Shown: in pieces, positions 15,096-59,145 of the stretch
How positions within the stretch are numbered: the stretch's first letter is position 1
How the letters are laid out: each line of letters begins with the position of its first letter
Source: Escherichia phage vB_EcoM_VR7
DNA length: 64,000 nt
Sequence record: NC_014792.1
Reading direction: 5' to 3' (one strand)
Position numbers and translations under genes: made by a program
Notes under the pieces: model-generated
The model's input: only the letters and a program-made list of their open reading frames with translations
Databases searched by the model: none
Told to the model about the DNA's origin: nothing

Positions 15096-15103
15096 TATTT
15101 ATA
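15096..15103 (-). promoter_or_regulatory. late promoter TATAAATA for soc
   Basis: exact TATAAATA about 30 nt upstream of soc ATG, AAAGGAG RBS between. Confidence 0.6.
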
Positions 15104-15129: not shown

Positions 15130-15816
15130 TTAAATGCCTCTAAATTCATATATTAAAAGTTTAAGTGCACTAGGGGTTGTTTCGTATTTCCCTTTAAGTG
15201 CTTTAACCACGGCAGTTGCCCCACCGGGTTTACCTAATGAAAGCCAAATCTGATAGATTTCACTTTTCAACGGTTCATGCCAATGGGCAGCGGTTCTTTG
15301 AGCTTTAGATGTGGCTTCTGATACGATTTTATTTCCACCATTTGCGTAAAACTCATTCATTGCTTCTGATTGTCTGGATTTGCGTTCAGGCCTATTTTGA
15401 GCGGTGCTTTGAGCTTCCTTCATTTTGGCTTTGGTTTTTGGTTTGTTTAAACGCAATGTTTGGGCCAACTTCATTTCGTCCGTCCATTCGTATCCTTCAC
15501 CACCCTGTCCACCGGGTAAAATATTAATACAATTTGAACCATGTTTAGAATTTAATAATGATATTATATATCTTTCATGTTCAAACATCATTTCCCGATT
15601 CTGGTGACCTACAAACCAACGAATTTTATATTTGACCCCATATTTTTTATAGATATTCCAAAGTATTTTTCCAGAGCCAGGATATCGGTCTTTATTTGGG
15701 TCTAATACATTGGTCTCATGTTTACCACCATACCAAAAAACGCCTTTCGGCGTTTTAACTTTAATTATATAAGTTCTATAAAATTTTGCCTTAATAGCCA
15801 TGGTCCTGGCGCTCAA
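15130..15816 (-). CDS. putative GIY-YIG homing endonuclease (segF position)
   Basis: 228 aa; YIIKV...FWYGGKHE, EHERYII, NILPGGQGG; basic C-terminal DNA-binding-like region. Confidence 0.5.
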   Translation of the reverse strand: MSARTMAIKAKFYRTYIIKVKTPKGVFWYGGKHETNVLDPNKDRYPGSGKILWNIYKKYGVKYKIRWFVGHQNREMMFEHERYIISLLNSKHGSNCINILPGGQGGEGYEWTDEMKLAQTLRLNKPKTKAKMKEAQSTAQNRPERKSRQSEAMNEFYANGGNKIVSEATSKAQRTAAHWHEPLKSEIYQIWLSLGKPGGATAVVKALKGKYETTPSALKLLIYEFRGI

Positions 15817-16309: not shown

Positions 16310-16391
16310 TATTTTTCCTTATCAATTCATGTTGTTTGTATGTTAATTATATCATATTGAGTTGAAGCATAAATAAAAGAAAGGAGGATGT

Positions 16392-16589
16392 ATGCTAAAA
16401 CTATCTAGTCTAATTCAAGCCATTAAAGGCAGTCGTAAGCGAACGATTTTGGCCCTTTCGATACTCTGTTCAGTTCTTTTATGGAACTTCATTGTCGCCC
16501 CTATTGCATTGGCACATGGTCTTGTGCTTCCAGTCGTTGCCTTCGAATCAGTTGTAGATGTTTCACTGGCATTAATCGGCCTTATATAG
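16392..16589 (+). CDS. small membrane protein (plus strand)
   Basis: 65 aa; strong RBS AAAGGAGGATGTATG; hydrophobic segments. Confidence 0.5.
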   Translation: MLKLSSLIQAIKGSRKRTILALSILCSVLLWNFIVAPIALAHGLVLPVVAFESVVDVSLALIGLI

Positions 16590-16597
16590 GTGGAACT

Positions 16598-16867
16598 ATG
16601 GGAACATTATTCTATCAGATATGGAAATTAACCAGTAAGAAAGACAAGAAGCTTATCATGGGATTTTTAGCTCTTGATATTTTCCTGTGGAACTTACTGG
16701 TTGTACCTATCGCCGCAACACAAGGGGTACACTTACCCCAGGTCACAATGGGGCATATCCATTCCATCATCGGTTTACTTTACCGGAATCCCTTCCTAAA
16801 CTTTTGCGTACTTCGAAAGTCGCATTCTTGCCATCAACCCTTTGGGCACGTTATCAGCCATATATGA
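16598..16867 (+). CDS. small membrane protein, paralog of 16392..16589
   Basis: LALDIFLWNLLVVPIAATQG resembles LALSILCSVLLWNFIVAPIALAHG; 3' end converges on primase; end uncertain. Confidence 0.4.
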   Translation: MGTLFYQIWKLTSKKDKKLIMGFLALDIFLWNLLVVPIAATQGVHLPQVTMGHIHSIIGLLYRNPFLNFCVLRKSHSCHQPFGHVISHI

Positions 16868-17824
16868 TTCGATTTGTTCAGGGGTTGCCCCTTCTGATTT
16901 AACCATCTCATTTATGTCTTTTGTATGCCATGGCGCATTATCCCAGAACATAACGGCTTCACCAGCTTCAACGAGTTTCTTCATACGTTTAATCGTATCA
17001 GGATGTCTTGGCTCGTTGTCCATTACCCATACTCTGGTTTCAGCATAAGGAACCGCTTCCAATGACAATGTACCGCCGGTTATCGCAATGCTGTTAGGGA
17101 TAAACAAACTATCAATCGGACCTTCCATTACCCACACGCGCTTACGCTCATCAATCTTGTCTACCCCGTAGACTTTGGAAGCTTCTGGGTGGGCTTTGAT
17201 GGTGATATATTTTTGTGGTGCATCTTTGCGAAGAGCTCGTCCTTGGAAAGATTCGATTTCTTTTTTGCCGTTGAAGATAGGAATAACCAAGCGTGGTTCA
17301 TTCGTTTCATTCTTATACGTCCCAGGATTAACGGAGTTAACTAATGCAGGCCATTTGTTTGTAAACCATAGCCGGTCCCAAACACCAGCCGGAATACACC
17401 GACTTTTTACATACTTAACTATCGGATGCGCTTCTGGTAAAGTATCGAGTCTTTCACAAAAAGCAAGCTGCTCGATAACCGGAGTTTTTTCTGGCTCTTT
17501 CGGAGTTTCTGTGACTTCAGTACGTTGTCGACCAAAGGCATTCTCCTTGTACTTCTCGACCATATATTCCCGGTGTAAATCTGGCTCAAACTCTTTTATG
17601 TATTTGCTTATATGTGTGGAGTAGTCACAGTTAAAACATTTCACATAAACCGCGCCATCCGCTGGATTGGTATACGCCCAGAATCGAGCCTTATGTGAAT
17701 CCTTTTGGGAGTCCCCGCAAACTTTACATCTACAGTTTGCCTTAAATGTGCTCCCGGTGACTTCTCTATAACGTGGTTGATACGATAAAGCTCTGACCGC
17801 AAATTCTTTATCAATATATGACAT
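16796..17824 (-). CDS. 61: DNA primase
   Basis: 342 aa; zinc ribbon CRCKVCGDS...CFNCDYSTH; TOPRIM-like EGPIDSLF. Confidence 0.9.
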   Translation of the reverse strand: MSYIDKEFAVRALSYQPRYREVTGSTFKANCRCKVCGDSQKDSHKARFWAYTNPADGAVYVKCFNCDYSTHISKYIKEFEPDLHREYMVEKYKENAFGRQRTEVTETPKEPEKTPVIEQLAFCERLDTLPEAHPIVKYVKSRCIPAGVWDRLWFTNKWPALVNSVNPGTYKNETNEPRLVIPIFNGKKEIESFQGRALRKDAPQKYITIKAHPEASKVYGVDKIDERKRVWVMEGPIDSLFIPNSIAITGGTLSLEAVPYAETRVWVMDNEPRHPDTIKRMKKLVEAGEAVMFWDNAPWHTKDINEMVKSEGATPEQIESYMADNVPKGLMARMRLSKYAKV

Positions 17825-17856
17825 AGTTTCCTCATTTCAATGGCCCCGGAGGACCA

Positions 17857-18024
17857 TTATACTGTAGGTTTATCGTCTTTGTTCTTACGCTTTTTTGATG
17901 GGATTTGTTCAGGGCCTTTATTGACAACTGCCCCGGAAGTGGTACCTGTTGCGATATTAGTTGGGTTTCCGCCAGCATCACCAGCAACCATATCTTCATT
18001 GATAAAATCTTTGAATGTTTTCAT
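17857..18024 (-). CDS. small protein with capsid-targeting-like N-terminus
   Basis: about 55 aa, MKTFKDFINED... resembles the MKTYQEFITE capsid targeting sequence; TATAAATA upstream; approximate. Confidence 0.4.
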   Translation of the reverse strand: MKTFKDFINEDMVAGDAGGNPTNIATGTTSGAVVNKGPEQIPSKKRKNKDDKPTV

Positions 18025-18040
18025 AACACCCCCTTTCCGC

Positions 18041-18048
18041 TATTTATA
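18041..18048 (-). promoter_or_regulatory. late promoter TATAAATA
   Basis: TGTATAAATAGCGGAAAGGGGGTGTTATG on minus strand. Confidence 0.5.
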
Positions 18049-18235
18049 CAACGAAGATGGCTTTATCACCATTTGCATCAGTCACTTCATAAGTGTCTTC
18101 ATGATACAACGGAATAATCCAGGTAACACCATCATCAGCAATAACATGGATTGCTTCTTGGTCTTGCGACACGATTTCATATTCTTCAAAAATCTCGAAT
18201 ACGGAAATCTTAGAGCCCGTACACATTGCACTCAT
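18044..18235 (-). CDS. hypothetical protein
   Basis: 63 aa acidic ORF. Confidence 0.4.
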   Translation of the reverse strand: MSAMCTGSKISVFEIFEEYEIVSQDQEAIHVIADDGVTWIIPLYHEDTYEVTDANGDKAIFVV

Positions 18236-18431
18236 ATTGTTCCCTTCTTTTAATCAGTTGGCGATGTGCCTTTTTAAGCTTACGAATCTGACGTTTGGTT
18301 GGTCGTGCAACGTAAGCTTGTGTAGTTACTCGTCCGAAAACTCCATACTTGGGAGACGGAGTATCAATGAAGACTTCCCATTGACAAGAGTAGCTATATG
18401 TTGCTTTAGAAAATTGAGTTAAAACAAACAT
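18210..18431 (-). CDS. small basic protein, RPTKRQIR-motif family
   Basis: 73 aa; ARPTKRQIRKLKKAHRQ shared with 19587..19883 and 40041..40217. Confidence 0.5.
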   Translation of the reverse strand: MFVLTQFSKATYSYSCQWEVFIDTPSPKYGVFGRVTTQAYVARPTKRQIRKLKKAHRQLIKRREQYECNVYGL

Positions 18432-18432
18432 A

Positions 18433-18792
18433 TTAACCTCGTTTCATGAAGGCATTAAAAATCTGGTCGTCAATAGCAATAGACTGTTCTTGAGCTTTGG
18501 CCCAAACCCCTTCCAGAATGTCATTCGCTTCAGTAGATATCATGACCCCAATTTCAGGATTTCCAGTTATCCAGATTGCGCAATCGCGCACATTCTTTTT
18601 ATCAAATGGATATCCACGAGTATCTTCATAAGGTCCATCCATTACCATAAATGAGCGAGCCTTTATGATAAAATCATCTTTAACGATAATATAACCAATC
18701 GCCTGATTAAACCGAGGCTCACGAAATTCATAATGAGCATTACCATCATTATTGCTGACCAGTTCAAAATCCAGAAAATTATAATAACTCAT
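18433..18792 (-). CDS. hypothetical protein with duplicated C-terminal cassette
   Basis: 119 aa; ends AIDDQIFNAFMKRG; about 45 nt DNA repeat at 3' end. Confidence 0.5.
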   Translation of the reverse strand: MSYYNFLDFELVSNNDGNAHYEFREPRFNQAIGYIIVKDDFIIKARSFMVMDGPYEDTRGYPFDKKNVRDCAIWITGNPEIGVMISTEANDILEGVWAKAQEQSIAIDDQIFNAFMKRG

Positions 18793-18840
18793 ATTAATCT
18801 CGCTTCATAAAGGCATTAAAAATTTGGTCGTCAACTGAAT
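18433..18840 (-). repeat. about 45-nt direct repeat at the 3' ends of two adjacent genes
   Basis: 18433..18480 and 18790..18840 are roughly 85% identical, covering the last 11 codons, the stop and the next start codon. Confidence 0.55.
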
Positions 18841-19231
18841 AAACGGGGGTTTCCAGAATTTTCAAAAGACTGTTTTTGATGTACTTGCTAGGGATACTTG
18901 CATTAATAACATCATCAACTAATTCGCTGTTGTGATTAATATTGTTGAATTCAAACCCTTCAAATGTTACTTTATGAGGAACACCCCCAGAAAACAGATG
19001 TGTCAATTCAATCATTGTATTACGCGTAAGCGGTTTGGTTACCATTTTAGGGAAATCTTTCCACTGATTTAATTCTTTGTTAAGAAGTTTATGAGCAAAT
19101 ACAATTCTATCATCACTATCAACAAGAAAATAACCCAGATATTGAATCTCGTCGCTCCAAAACACCCTGTAGGCCTGTGCATTTGGATTTTTACAACGAA
19201 GTTTTTTGATAACCAAATTTCTGTTAATCAT
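18794..19231 (-). CDS. hypothetical protein with duplicated C-terminal cassette
   Basis: start moved to MINRNL (AGGTGA RBS); ends SVDDQIFNAFMKRD. Confidence 0.5.
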   Translation of the reverse strand: MINRNLVIKKLRCKNPNAQAYRVFWSDEIQYLGYFLVDSDDRIVFAHKLLNKELNQWKDFPKMVTKPLTRNTMIELTHLFSGGVPHKVTFEGFEFNNINHNSELVDDVINASIPSKYIKNSLLKILETPVYSVDDQIFNAFMKRD

Positions 19232-19232
19232 T

Positions 19233-19526
19233 TTATTCACCTGTAACTTCTTTGACGATGTTTTCATTTTCAAAGTTAGGGTCACAATACAACACGTAAT
19301 TATACTGCATAACCCCACCAGATGCCAACTGGTCAGATACTTCTTTGACCTTGTTTAGTTGGTCACGTTTAGTGATGTTCATGATGTCCGCGTAAATCTG
19401 GTGTTCAACTGCTTCCTGGTCAGCGGTCATTGACCACTCACAAAGGTCTTTATCATAACCAGCGGTAACTGGAGCTGCGTGACATGAAGCGAGGACTAAG
19501 ATTGCTGCGATAGATAACTTTTTCAT
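19233..19526 (-). CDS. sp: spackle periplasmic protein
   Basis: 97 aa; signal peptide; GYDKDLCEWSMTADQ and GGVMQYNYVLYCD recalled from T4 Sp. Confidence 0.7.
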   Translation of the reverse strand: MKKLSIAAILVLASCHAAPVTAGYDKDLCEWSMTADQEAVEHQIYADIMNITKRDQLNKVKEVSDQLASGGVMQYNYVLYCDPNFENENIVKEVTGE

Positions 19527-40005: not shown

Positions 40006-40040
40006 AATAAACCCTTACCATTATTAGATAAGGGTATTTA

Positions 40041-40217
40041 TTAAATATTATAAAACGAGCGATGCAACCGTTTAAATTGTCGAATCATCTTTTTAGTAGG
40101 ACGAGTATATAATCCTACGCAGGTGACCATAAACCGGTCAGTAGGACTTCCTTTGATAAGAAGTTTCCAGACCTTACCACCATTTAACTTTTCGGTATAG
40201 ACTAATACAGTTTTCAT
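40041..40217 (-). CDS. small basic protein, RPTKRQIR-motif family
   Basis: about 58 aa, ...YTRPTKKMIRQFKRLHR...; below track cutoff; approximate. Confidence 0.4.
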   Translation of the reverse strand: MKTVLVYTEKLNGGKVWKLLIKGSPTDRFMVTCVGLYTRPTKKMIRQFKRLHRSFYNI

Positions 40218-56727: not shown

Positions 56728-57027
56728 TTAAAAAGAACCAGAGCCTTTAATTGTGTTCTGGCGACCTTTATTTTCGAATTCAGAATGGTCGATTTCGTAT
56801 GCTTGTGCTACGCCAAAGGCCTTTTTAACTTTAGCTAAAGAACCTTTAGATGTAACAATATTAAAAGTATTGCCTTTGGTAAAATCAACCAAATCCACTT
56901 GCACACCCTGTTTACCGAGGCTTGCTACAATAGCATCAACATATTGTTGGTCTAAATTGCCTTGAACCCCAATTTGAAATGCTTTAGGAACTTTGGCTTC
57001 TGTGATAAATTCTTGATAAGTTAACAT
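56728..57027 (-). CDS. internal head protein (capsid-targeting sequence)
   Basis: 99 aa; N-terminal MLTYQEFITE resembles the T4 internal protein targeting sequence. Confidence 0.6.
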   Translation of the reverse strand: MLTYQEFITEAKVPKAFQIGVQGNLDQQYVDAIVASLGKQGVQVDLVDFTKGNTFNIVTSKGSLAKVKKAFGVAQAYEIDHSEFENKGRQNTIKGSGSF

Positions 57028-57056
57028 TATACACTATCCCATCATAAAGTAAACAG

Positions 57057-57320
57057 TTAAGCTTTACCGCCAGAAACAATACCAAAGGTCTCAAAGTCCC
57101 ATTCAATATCGTCAACATCAACTTTCTTACCAGCAACCACAAATGCGATTTCGCGGCGTTTTGCATAGGTAACAATTTCTTTGCCATCGCCGCCAAAGAA
57201 AGAATAACCATTGCGCTTCATGGTGCCAAAGTCTTCAGCATCACCAGCGAAGGCACGGACTTTAAAGGAGCCAGCAGGAGCTTTAGCAGATTCAGTAATA
57301 AATTCTTGATAAGTTTTCAT
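57057..57320 (-). CDS. internal head protein (capsid-targeting sequence)
   Basis: 87 aa; N-terminal MKTYQEFITE. Confidence 0.65.
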   Translation of the reverse strand: MKTYQEFITESAKAPAGSFKVRAFAGDAEDFGTMKRNGYSFFGGDGKEIVTYAKRREIAFVVAGKKVDVDDIEWDFETFGIVSGGKA

Positions 57321-57333
57321 AATGTCTCTTTAG

Positions 57334-57648
57334 TTAAGCTTTAGGGAAATCGCGCAAAAACGCATCATAAAGTTTATTACCAATGCGACGGAATGCTTTT
57401 GCCGCATGAACGTTATCTGGGTTTGCAATTTTAATCTGCATTACATGACTACCAGCCCATGATTTAGCTTCGTCATAATAACCTTTAATTTCTTTAATAG
57501 TCTTGCGTTTTCCACCAGGACCATCGACAGTAATTTTCCACGAACCAGTGCTTGTTTCACTTGGTGGGGTTAACTGTTCAATCCAGACATAACCACCTTC
57601 AACACGTTGTTGAGTAGATTCAGTAATAAATTCTTGATAAGTTTTCAT
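57334..57648 (-). CDS. internal head protein (capsid-targeting sequence)
   Basis: start moved to MKTYQEFITES; track ORF extends to 57687 through the promoter -10. Confidence 0.6.
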   Translation of the reverse strand: MKTYQEFITESTQQRVEGGYVWIEQLTPPSETSTGSWKITVDGPGGKRKTIKEIKGYYDEAKSWAGSHVMQIKIANPDNVHAAKAFRRIGNKLYDAFLRDFPKA

Positions 57649-57678
57649 TTTATATTCCATTGTTTGGTTGATAAAATC

Positions 57679-57707
57679 ATTATACAACCTTTTTAGTTAA
57701 GCGTACA
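57679..57707 (-). promoter_or_regulatory. early promoter upstream of the internal-protein genes
   Basis: GTGTACG-N17-TATAAT on the minus strand. Confidence 0.45.
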
Positions 57708-58657: not shown

Positions 58658-58683
58658 AATACCCCCTTATATAGGGGTATTTA

Positions 58684-59145
58684 TTATCCGAAAATTTGAG
58701 TCAAAACCTTGTACATCGATTTACCCATTACGTATTGCCATTGACTCGGTTTAATCAGAGCAAATGCATCAAACTCTGGGACCGAACTACCATCCGGGAA
58801 GGTATGATATGCGGAGCATTTACTATGTCTGAATTGCTCATGCTCGACCGGGACCGTGTACAAAAACAGGTGAAGGTTTTTGTTATCTGAATAACGGAAC
58901 TCGCCTAGGTCTTTTAAGAATGCCGGGTCATACTGGGTAAAGCCTGTTTCTTCTTCGCATTCACGTATAGCCGCTTCAATCGGGGATTCACCGGCTTCAA
59001 CATGACCCTTAGGGATATCCCATTTATGTGCAGGCATACCCGGTTTGCGAGAACCAGTCACACGACCCATGAATAACTCTTTATCTTCAGTCATGAAAAT
59101 AATGCCGGCAGATAATTCTTTCACCACGTTTTTCTTACTCATCAT
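58684..59145 (-). CDS. nudE: Nudix hydrolase
   Basis: start moved to MMSKKNV; Nudix box GHVEAGESPIEAAIRECEEETG. Confidence 0.75.
   Translation of the reverse strand: MMSKKNVVKELSAGIIFMTEDKELFMGRVTGSRKPGMPAHKWDIPKGHVEAGESPIEAAIRECEEETGFTQYDPAFLKDLGEFRYSDNKNLHLFLYTVPVEHEQFRHSKCSAYHTFPDGSSVPEFDAFALIKPSQWQYVMGKSMYKVLTQIFG

Follow-up and report, generated by a model that had tools for sequence, protein, structure and literature searches.

Gene 61.1 of Escherichia phage vB_EcoM_VR7 as a candidate small head protein resembling the N-terminus of gp23, the major capsid protein

The DNA analysed (the window) was a 64 kb stretch of Escherichia phage vB_EcoM_VR7 (NC_014792.1), a T4-type phage of the genus Gaprivervirus, and all positions are numbered within it. 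The subject is the ortholog of T4 gene 61.1, a short open reading frame (ORF) next to the primase gene 61. With a probability of about 0.55, its 55 amino acid (aa) product gp61.1 is a small head protein which is targeted to the prohead and processed by the prohead protease gp21, its tag and body both copying the scaffold-facing N-terminus of gp23, the major capsid protein. Homologies, motifs and synteny, the presence of two homologs in virions and, for one homolog, an N-terminus right after a Glu were observed directly; from these we infer targeting by the N-terminal decapeptide, cleavage by gp21, late transcription in VR7 and a role for the 45-residue peptide.

An earlier note on this DNA had suggested that the ORF, starting MKTFKDFINED, would be a fourth, dispersed internal-protein-like gene with its own late promoter. 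The ORF is real (minus strand, 17857..18024). However, no similarity to internal proteins (IPs) was found past residue 10, and the product belongs to the conserved gp61.1 family, with a gp23-paralogous body; nor is the gene a recent, dispersed copy, as it holds a fixed, ancient position beside gene 61 in all T4-like genera examined. Judged from the sequence comparisons, gp61.1 is an ancient, fixed T4-like gene with a capsid-protein-derived body and a long-form ancestor. The strand, the gp61.1 orthology and the gp23-like body all go beyond the earlier note.

Resemblance to the gp23 cleavage junction and to capsid-targeting sequences

By BLASTP, residues 2-46 of gp61.1 matched residues 55-99 of the gp23 of Escherichia phage vB_EcoM_VR25 (19 of 45 identical, E=1e-9), and the corresponding T4 proteins matched each other with E=6e-9. 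When the whole PDB was searched by sequence, T4 gp23 chains were the only matches below E=1 (best E=8.9e-5), and the hhalign comparison of gp61.1 with gp23 (probability 96%, E=3.7e-9) covered gp23 residues ~54-101. The register places F-I-N-E10 of gp61.1 over F-L-T-E65 of gp23, the bond cut by gp21: the decapeptide MKTFKDFINE is aligned to SEAFGSFLTE or AQAFGSFLTE, ending at the Glu65 cleavage site, and the core DMVAGD..GGNP.NI..GTTSGAVVNKGP is aligned to AEIGGDHGYNATNIAAGQTSGAVTQIGP, the N-terminal arm of mature gp23 (gp23*). On these alignments, the body of gp61.1 is a paralog of gp23 residues ~54-101, and the homology takes in both the propeptide junction and the N-terminal arm. The two proteins share the L/I-x-E cleavage motif in register and a significant local homology; unlike gp23, gp61.1 lacks the first ~53 propeptide residues and the HK97-fold body and, having neither the A nor the P domain in its 55 aa, falls outside the HK97 capsid family.

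In the unexpanded T4 head, this N-terminal region of gp23 lacks an ordered structure and is turned towards the scaffolding core; in the expanded head it forms an arm and an 'N-fist' that make inter-capsomer contacts and part of the Soc site, and the head-length mutations A66D, A94V and G97S map to it (PMC9546572).

The resemblance to IP N-termini proposed in the earlier note was confirmed: three IP genes exist at 56728..57648 and start MKTYQEFITE (57648), MKTYQEFITE (57320) and MLTYQEFITE (57027), where gp61.1 starts MKTFKDFINE. In the six frames of the window, the loose N-terminal pattern M..[FY]..[FV][ILVM].E was matched by these four ORFs only, and the mean number of matches in shuffled windows was 0.16. 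The likeness extends to other phages: T4 IPII and IPIII start MKTYQEFIAE, and the T2/T6-type gp61.1 starts MKTYKEFIKE, identical at 8 of 10 positions to this T4 capsid-targeting sequence (CTS); gp61.1 of Jiaodavirus KMI13 starts MKTYKEFVTE, and an IP of the related Jiaodavirus ValerieMcCarty04 starts MKTYKEFITE. Mutagenesis of the T4 IPIII CTS assigned residues 4 and 7 to targeting and residues 8 and 10 to processing (Mullaney & Black 1996, summarised in PMC9026906). All four critical positions are kept in gp61.1 (F/Y4, F7, I/V/L/M8, E10; in VR7, F4, F7, I8 and E10), as they are in the final ten residues of the gp23 propeptide (AQAFGSFLTE). By these comparisons the gp61.1 N-terminus is a genuine CTS look-alike, a decapeptide in which positions 4 and 7 are aromatic, position 8 is I/L and position 10 is Glu. 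The IP decapeptide (MKTYQEFIAE or MKTYQEFITE) itself lines up with the propeptide end AQAFGSFLTE at the same positions (aromatic 4 and 7, I/L 8, Glu 10), and the CTS of internal proteins may have been copied from the cleavage junction of the capsid protein itself.

Compared with T4 IPI, IPII, IPIII and Alt, gp61.1 has the same 10-residue tag (aromatic 4 and 7, I/L 8, Glu 10), and its homologs show evidence of cleavage after Glu and of presence in virions. Unlike the hypervariable IPs, which it does not resemble past the tag, it carries a tiny, strongly conserved, gp23-derived cargo; its gene adjoins the primase gene, 39 kb from the variable denV-e IP locus; and in many genera a domain of ~100 residues stands in place of the decapeptide.

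Peptides of gp61.1 homologs in purified virions

The virions of Klebsiella phage ValerieMcCarty04 (Jiaodavirus) were purified on CsCl and analysed by liquid chromatography-tandem mass spectrometry (PMC13119998, Data S2). The short-form gp61.1 homolog of this phage is WKM80554.1 (MKTFKEFVKLNEEMVAGDAGGNPQNIASGTTSGAVVNKGPETLPKKKRDKSKPET), for which two kinds of peptide were listed: E.EMVAGDAGGNPQNIASGTTSGAVVNK.G (E.EMVAGD...NK.G; 2 spectra, -10lgP 89.9 and 65.2) and E.MVAGD...NK.G (1 spectrum, -10lgP 54.4). The peptide file prints flanking residues, as judged from its ordinary tryptic peptides, so the N-termini lie right after L10-N11-E12, which is the canonical L-x-E motif, as well as after E13. 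K.LNEEMVAG..., the tryptic peptide expected without cleavage, was absent from these virion data. The N-terminal fragments of the IPs are too short for detection in the same data.

For Yersinia phage phiR1-RT (Tegunavirus), the proteome of purified particles has been reported (PMC6893735, Tables S3/S4). Its Gp036, named 'gp61.1' (160 aa, long form), was represented by 9 unique peptides (61.9% coverage), a count near those of gp12 (10), the scaffold (11) and a baseplate wedge protein (8) and well above those of DNA polymerase (3 peptides, 4.4%), gp41 (3) and UvsX (2). Gp036 stands first among the hypothetical proteins that the authors re-annotated as structural (PMC6893735). Publications about fHyAci03, DLP1/DLP2, the fPS phages and fHy-Eco03 yielded no usable proteomics for 61.1.

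The earlier note had proposed a head protein cut past the Glu of ...INE/ITE. For the first part, homologs are present in purified virions of phiR1-RT and ValerieMcCarty04; for the second, peptides of WKM80554.1 begin right after L-N-E. These observations speak for other genera and not for VR7.

Family, transcription signals and locus

A tblastn search with gp61.1 matched 1517 phage records, counting matches to 61.1, gp23 or both, and at least 80% of the query was covered in 580 of them; most genomes were matched at two sites, 61.1 and the major capsid protein gene. Synteny was examined in Jiaodavirus, Krischvirus, Pseudotevenvirus, Karamvirus, Winklervirus, Slopekvirus, Tegunavirus and an Aeromonas phage, and also in VR25, SP18 and T4: in all T4-like genera examined, 61.1 is the immediate upstream neighbour of gene 61, on the same strand. 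In VR7 it is placed between the sp/61.x genes and the primase gene, an arrangement shared by 9 further genera. The window is 98.7% identical to VR25 over 16700-19400, and VR7 gp61.1 (MKTFKDFINEDMVAGDAGGNPTNIATGTTSGAVVNKGPEQIPSKKRKNKDDKPTV) is 100% identical to VR25_034, annotated 'similar to T4 gp61.1'; the ortholog is so annotated in SP18 too. Its residues 1-52 matched the profile of phrog_1823 (short form, E=1e-32), and phrog_2086 (long form) was matched with E=1.4e-16. Scans of the short and long forms with Pfam and NCBIfam gave zero matches.

T4 gp61.1 (NP_049649, 54 aa, 'hypothetical protein'; MKTFKEFIKEDMVAGDSGGNPENISIGTTSGAVVNKGPEQIPKKKKEESKEKEE) has the same place directly upstream of gene 61 and the same architecture (MKTFKEFIKEDMVAGDSGGNPENISIGTTSGAVVNKGPEQIP...). 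It differs in that TATGAATA replaces the upstream motif TATAAATA, no hairpin precedes gene 61, the extreme C-terminus is acidic (basic in VR7) and the mRNA is classed as early. In the literature searched, gp61.1 is named only in two genome-description papers, which give it no function, and no other paper assigning one was found; no gp61.1 peptide strings were found in article main texts. Many GenBank records call this gene of 53-62 aa 'major capsid protein', 'putative capsid protein' or 'major capsid domain-containing protein'. Since gp61.1 has no HK97-fold body and matches no Pfam or NCBIfam capsid model, these names are misleading, an annotation artefact that we trace to the local similarity to the gp23 N-terminus. 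The 'major capsid protein' annotation of the 55-aa gene should be corrected.

Many other T4-like genera carry a long form of gp61.1 (~155 aa), in which a helical N-terminal domain of ~100 residues (the N-domain) replaces the decapeptide. The core is nearly invariant across short and long forms, the tag and tail being much less conserved, and every form has a hydrophobic-x-Glu motif immediately ahead of a conserved stretch, (D/E)MVAGD. Some long forms have LTEAEVAGD at the junction, near-identical to LTEAEIGGD of gp23. Reading frame, junction motif and core sequence are kept across many genera and hundreds of genomes. The decapeptide occupies the place of the N-domain in the short forms and may derive from the long-form linker (..EIFKELPLFE/D compared with MKTFKEFIKE/D, the slash marking the junction), and P0020, P0021 and RB69ORF032c are truncation intermediates between the two forms.

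The N-domain is a widespread phage N-terminal module, found in 1950 cluster representatives at E<=1e-3 by profile search and fused to many unrelated C-termini; no fold or sequence relative of known function was detected for it. In marine T4-like contigs, a gene with this module follows a DUF7207 gene inside the replication module. When the long-form profile was aligned by hhalign to gp23 residues 1-130, residues 54-101 alone aligned, so the N-domain has no detectable homology to the first 53 residues of the gp23 propeptide. Within the 40 residues past the module, [LIVM]-x-E is enriched (138 occurrences against 67 +/- 6.7 in composition-preserving shuffles), and the resemblance of this linker to the long cleavable propeptides of giant-phage head proteins is suggestive only. 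The head and ejection propeptides of SPN3US (gp47/50/53/54) and phiKZ are like long-form gp61.1 in having a ~100-residue N-terminal module, a hydrophobic-x-Glu motif and a cargo (PMC5694885). Unlike them, the long-form N-domain of phiR1-RT is itself found in particles, and cleavage of the long form is putative.

The exact TATAAATA that the earlier note had placed upstream of the ORF is present; its last base is 16 nt from the ATG of 61.1, and a ribosome-binding site (AAAGGGGG) lies in between. The TAA stop (18044-18046) of the preceding 63-aa ORF (18044..18235) overlaps the motif. The window has 3 copies of TATAAATA against 5.3 expected from shuffles, and a single copy is not improbable. Of the eight ATAAATA heptamers, seven have an ORF start 1-30 nt downstream, among them the starts of the late genes soc and e (lysozyme), so the motif marks gene starts in the VR7 genome; NATAAATA seems to be a reliable late-promoter marker there, with the heptamer avoided elsewhere. 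Besides that of 61.1, ATAAATA sites are at 16369-16375 (plus strand) and at 40035-40041, 51832-51838, 58678-58684, 15096-15103 and 2987-2994 (all minus). ATAAATA also precedes a small plus-strand ORF (16392..16589) between genes 56 and 61, and downstream of the copy at 2987-2994 come a hairpin and a second ORF of ~50 codons that starts near 2949. T4 late transcripts have their 5' end ~6 nt past the -10 motif, and the same is predicted for 61.1.

In other genera, the late motif is retained upstream of 61.1 homologs despite unrelated flanks. The exact TATAAATA was found 16-32 nt upstream of the 61.1 start in Gaprivervirus, JS98-like and CIP9-like phages, the metagenomic locus L025 and phiR1-RT; in L025 it is preceded by a terminator, and the CIP9-like phages carry a different upstream gene. 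At the equivalent site AATAAATA, GATAAATA or CATAAATA occurs in Jiaodavirus, CC31, CHI14 and Acinetobacter phages, and the motif is missing upstream of 61.1 in T4-type, RB49-like and Lw1/KP15-like phages. As to the 'own late promoter' of the earlier note, conservation of the motif across several genera holds; late transcription is predicted from the motif, against which stand the TATGAATA and the early mRNA of T4. The IP genes of the window are preceded (57028-57060 and 57649-57700, minus strand) by sigma-70 -10 sequences of the TGTATAAT type and not by late motifs, so in the window the late motif accompanies gp61.1 rather than the classical IPs.

The hairpin that follows 61.1 in VR7 has a folding free energy of -17 kcal/mol (z=-3.4) and no U-run. 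Of 16 lineages, 11 have a stable hairpin at or just past the 61.1 stop; a T-run comes after it in the CIP9-like, Acinetobacter and phiWae14 phages, and no hairpin was found before gene 61 of T4. With a late motif upstream and a hairpin downstream, 61.1 has in many phages the appearance of a small late transcription unit within the 41-to-61 operon. In the minimum-free-energy fold, bases flanking the VR7 hairpin pair with part of GAGG, the Shine-Dalgarno sequence of gene 61, and the hairpin might also modulate translation of the primase.

Table 1. Features of the 61.1 locus and comparator genes in the window
Feature	Position	Strand	Description
Gene 61.1 ortholog	17857..18024	minus	ATG start, 55 codons and TAA stop; phrog_1823 match
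Late-promoter -10 motif of T4 type, exact TATAAATA	18041..18048	minus	read in the sequence
Leader of 16 nt, gcggaAAGGGGGtgtt	18025..18040	minus	contains the Shine-Dalgarno sequence; read in the sequence
Codons 1-10, MKTFKDFINE	17995..18024	minus	CTS-like decapeptide ending in an I-x-E prohead-protease motif
Codons 11-41, DMVAGDAGGNPTNIATGTTSGAVVNKGPEQI	17902..17994	minus	conserved core, homologous to the N-terminal arm/N-fist of mature gp23*
Codons 42-55, PSKKRKNKDDKPTV	17860..17901	minus	basic tail, variable
Hairpin, 9 bp, UCCG loop	17838..17859	minus	begins at the 61.1 stop codon, before the gene 61 ribosome-binding site
Gene 61 (DNA primase)	16796..17824	minus	32 nt past 61.1; invariant downstream neighbour
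Three IP genes (comparators)	56728..57648	minus	ATGs at 57648, 57320 and 57027

Comparison of homologs showed that the KKRK(R) run of the tail is conserved and that the extreme C-terminus varies. An overlapping alternative ORF of 55 aa (17832..17999) was treated as spurious, being out of frame with the conserved protein. Upstream, two adjacent minus-strand ORFs (18433-18792 and 18794-19318) both terminate in DDQIFNAFMKRG/D, the C-terminus of T4 gp61.2 (AdfA, anti-DarT factor); the Pfam AdfA match to ORF 18433-18792 covers its last 19 residues only and falls under the cut-off. The two ORFs look like an AdfA-like pair that arose by duplication or has diverged. A minus-strand ORF of 228 aa (15130-15816), which lies between soc and gene 56 and contains ..YIIKVKTPKGVFWYGGKHE.., looks like a candidate GIY-YIG homing endonuclease of the Seg type; VR25 has small soc-like ORFs at this position instead.

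Weighing of the explanations and meaning for the T4-like head

The proposed course of events is as follows: gp61.1 would be expressed late, from the TATAAATA promoter of its own gene, and probably earlier too by read-through of the gene 41-to-61 operon. Its first 10 residues would act like the CTS of an IP, or the final 10 residues of the gp23 propeptide, and carry the protein onto the prohead core, where gp21 would cut after Glu10 (I-N-E/D), the same position relative to the core as L-T-E65/A in gp23. At the peptide level, the uncleaved TFKDFINEDMVAGD...NK would be distinguished from the processed DMVAGD...NK. The 45-residue product, a core like the gp23 N-arm with a basic tail, would stay in the mature head, probably held by the usual partner of the gp23 N-arm, with its tail on the DNA. 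Because the core is far more conserved than the tag and tail, it would be expected to bind some conserved part of the head, namely whatever partners the gp23 N-arm, and not merely to accompany the DNA.

Several points weigh against a processed head protein. Both virion preparations (ValerieMcCarty04 and phiR1-RT) carry over gp32, lysozyme, helicase, exonuclease and similar non-structural proteins, so presence alone is no proof of incorporation, and the 62% coverage in phiR1-RT implies that the long-form N-domain is also present in particles. The Klebsiella cleavage evidence amounts to 3 spectra in a single phage; every virion and cleavage observation was made on homologs in genera other than that of VR7; and the P1' residue is Asp in VR7 gp61.1, Glu in ValerieMcCarty04 and Ala in gp23. 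The neighbours of the gene are anti-defence genes (dmd, 61.4/TifA-like, 61.2/AdfA, sp) and not head genes. T4 has TATGAATA instead of TATAAATA, within the last codons of 61.2; its 61.1 transcript was classed as early (PMC9697503, Table S2), as were the ipII and ipIII mRNAs, and gp61.1 was not detected in the time-resolved proteome (PMC9697503). In the T4 head structure papers examined (including PMC9546572), no unassigned density is attributed to gp61.1.

Some of the same observations would suit a cytoplasmic mimic of the capsid protein, that is, a decoy or competitor for whatever recognises the N-terminus of new gp23 (a host capsid-sensing defence, gp31/GroEL, EF-Tu or gp21), found in virions by carry-over. 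The gene lies in a small counter-defence island (dmd, 61.4 (DUF7279, TifA-like), 61.2 (AdfA) and sp), transcription of the T4 ortholog is early, the likeness to gp23 is a specific one and carry-over is demonstrable in both preparations. Prohead-protease processing takes place inside proheads, however, and it is to such processing that peptide N-termini exactly past L-x-E, with the uncleaved peptide absent, point. In addition, the late-promoter motif is kept in many genera, and a CTS-like N-terminus is of no obvious use to a cytoplasmic decoy. We regard the mimic as unlikely. Pfam found AdfA, DUF7279 and Spackle in neighbouring ORFs and nothing in gp61.1, which gave no sign of relation to a characterised counter-defence protein. 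A decoy for Lit was set aside: the Gol segment of gp23, which triggers Lit and which we take to span residues ~93-122, starts about where the similarity of gp61.1 ends, just past the copied region.

About as improbable is an accessory of the shell, in which the processed peptide, rather than being loose inside the head, would attach to the capsid lattice in place of an N-arm, for example where gp23 hexamers meet gp24 pentamers or the portal and lack a neighbouring arm, or would tune head length by competing for the scaffold with gp23 N-termini. Its appeal lies in the 30-residue core, the most strictly conserved part of gp61.1, which copies the N-fist/arm of gp23, a region that, in expanded heads, makes contacts between capsomers, contributes to the Soc site and holds the length mutations A66D, A94V and G97S (PMC9546572); AlphaFold, on the other hand, models this region of gp61.1, taken alone, as disordered. 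A fuller version, in which gp61.1, once brought to the prohead and clipped by gp21, is a free-standing surrogate of the gp23 N-arm on lattice or scaffold sites beyond the reach of gp23 (e.g. by the gp24 pentamers or the portal) and affects head length, expansion or stability, is slightly more doubtful still. If it were true, a duplicated 45-residue piece of gp23 would have become an unrecognised structural component of the T4 head.

A part in replication, either with the primase-helicase or through translation of 61.1 and the hairpin setting the level of gp61, appears distinctly less plausible than either of these. The gene keeps an invariant synteny with genes 41 and 61, the long-form N-domain occurs in proteins from the replication module of marine T4-like contigs, and the hairpin abuts the ribosome-binding site of gene 61. 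Against it, the amino-acid sequence is strongly conserved and homologous to the capsid protein, virion proteomics and the post-Glu N-terminus favour a head location, and T4 has no such hairpin at all; the head-assembly gene 40 lies in the same T4 cluster, so gene position is weak evidence for function. A chance or decaying ORF, a functionless fossil of a gp23 duplication beside a coincidental TATAAATA, agrees with one such motif being not unexpected in 64 kb and with gp61.1 having gone undetected in the T4 proteome, and is effectively refuted as a relic by peptides detected in two phages and by the conservation of frame, junction motif and core over many genera and hundreds of genomes.

On balance, and with only slight preference over the contrary, we favour gp61.1 as an addition to the head proteins known to carry a CTS tag and undergo protease processing, its cargo being unusual. 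T4 is the reference for head assembly, and its inventory of head proteins is regarded as all but complete. Were gp61.1 indeed directed by a CTS and cut by gp21, an overlooked head component would be encoded by a gene that is conserved in the T4-like phages examined, T4 included, and its targeting tag would resemble a copy of the final ten residues of the gp23 propeptide.

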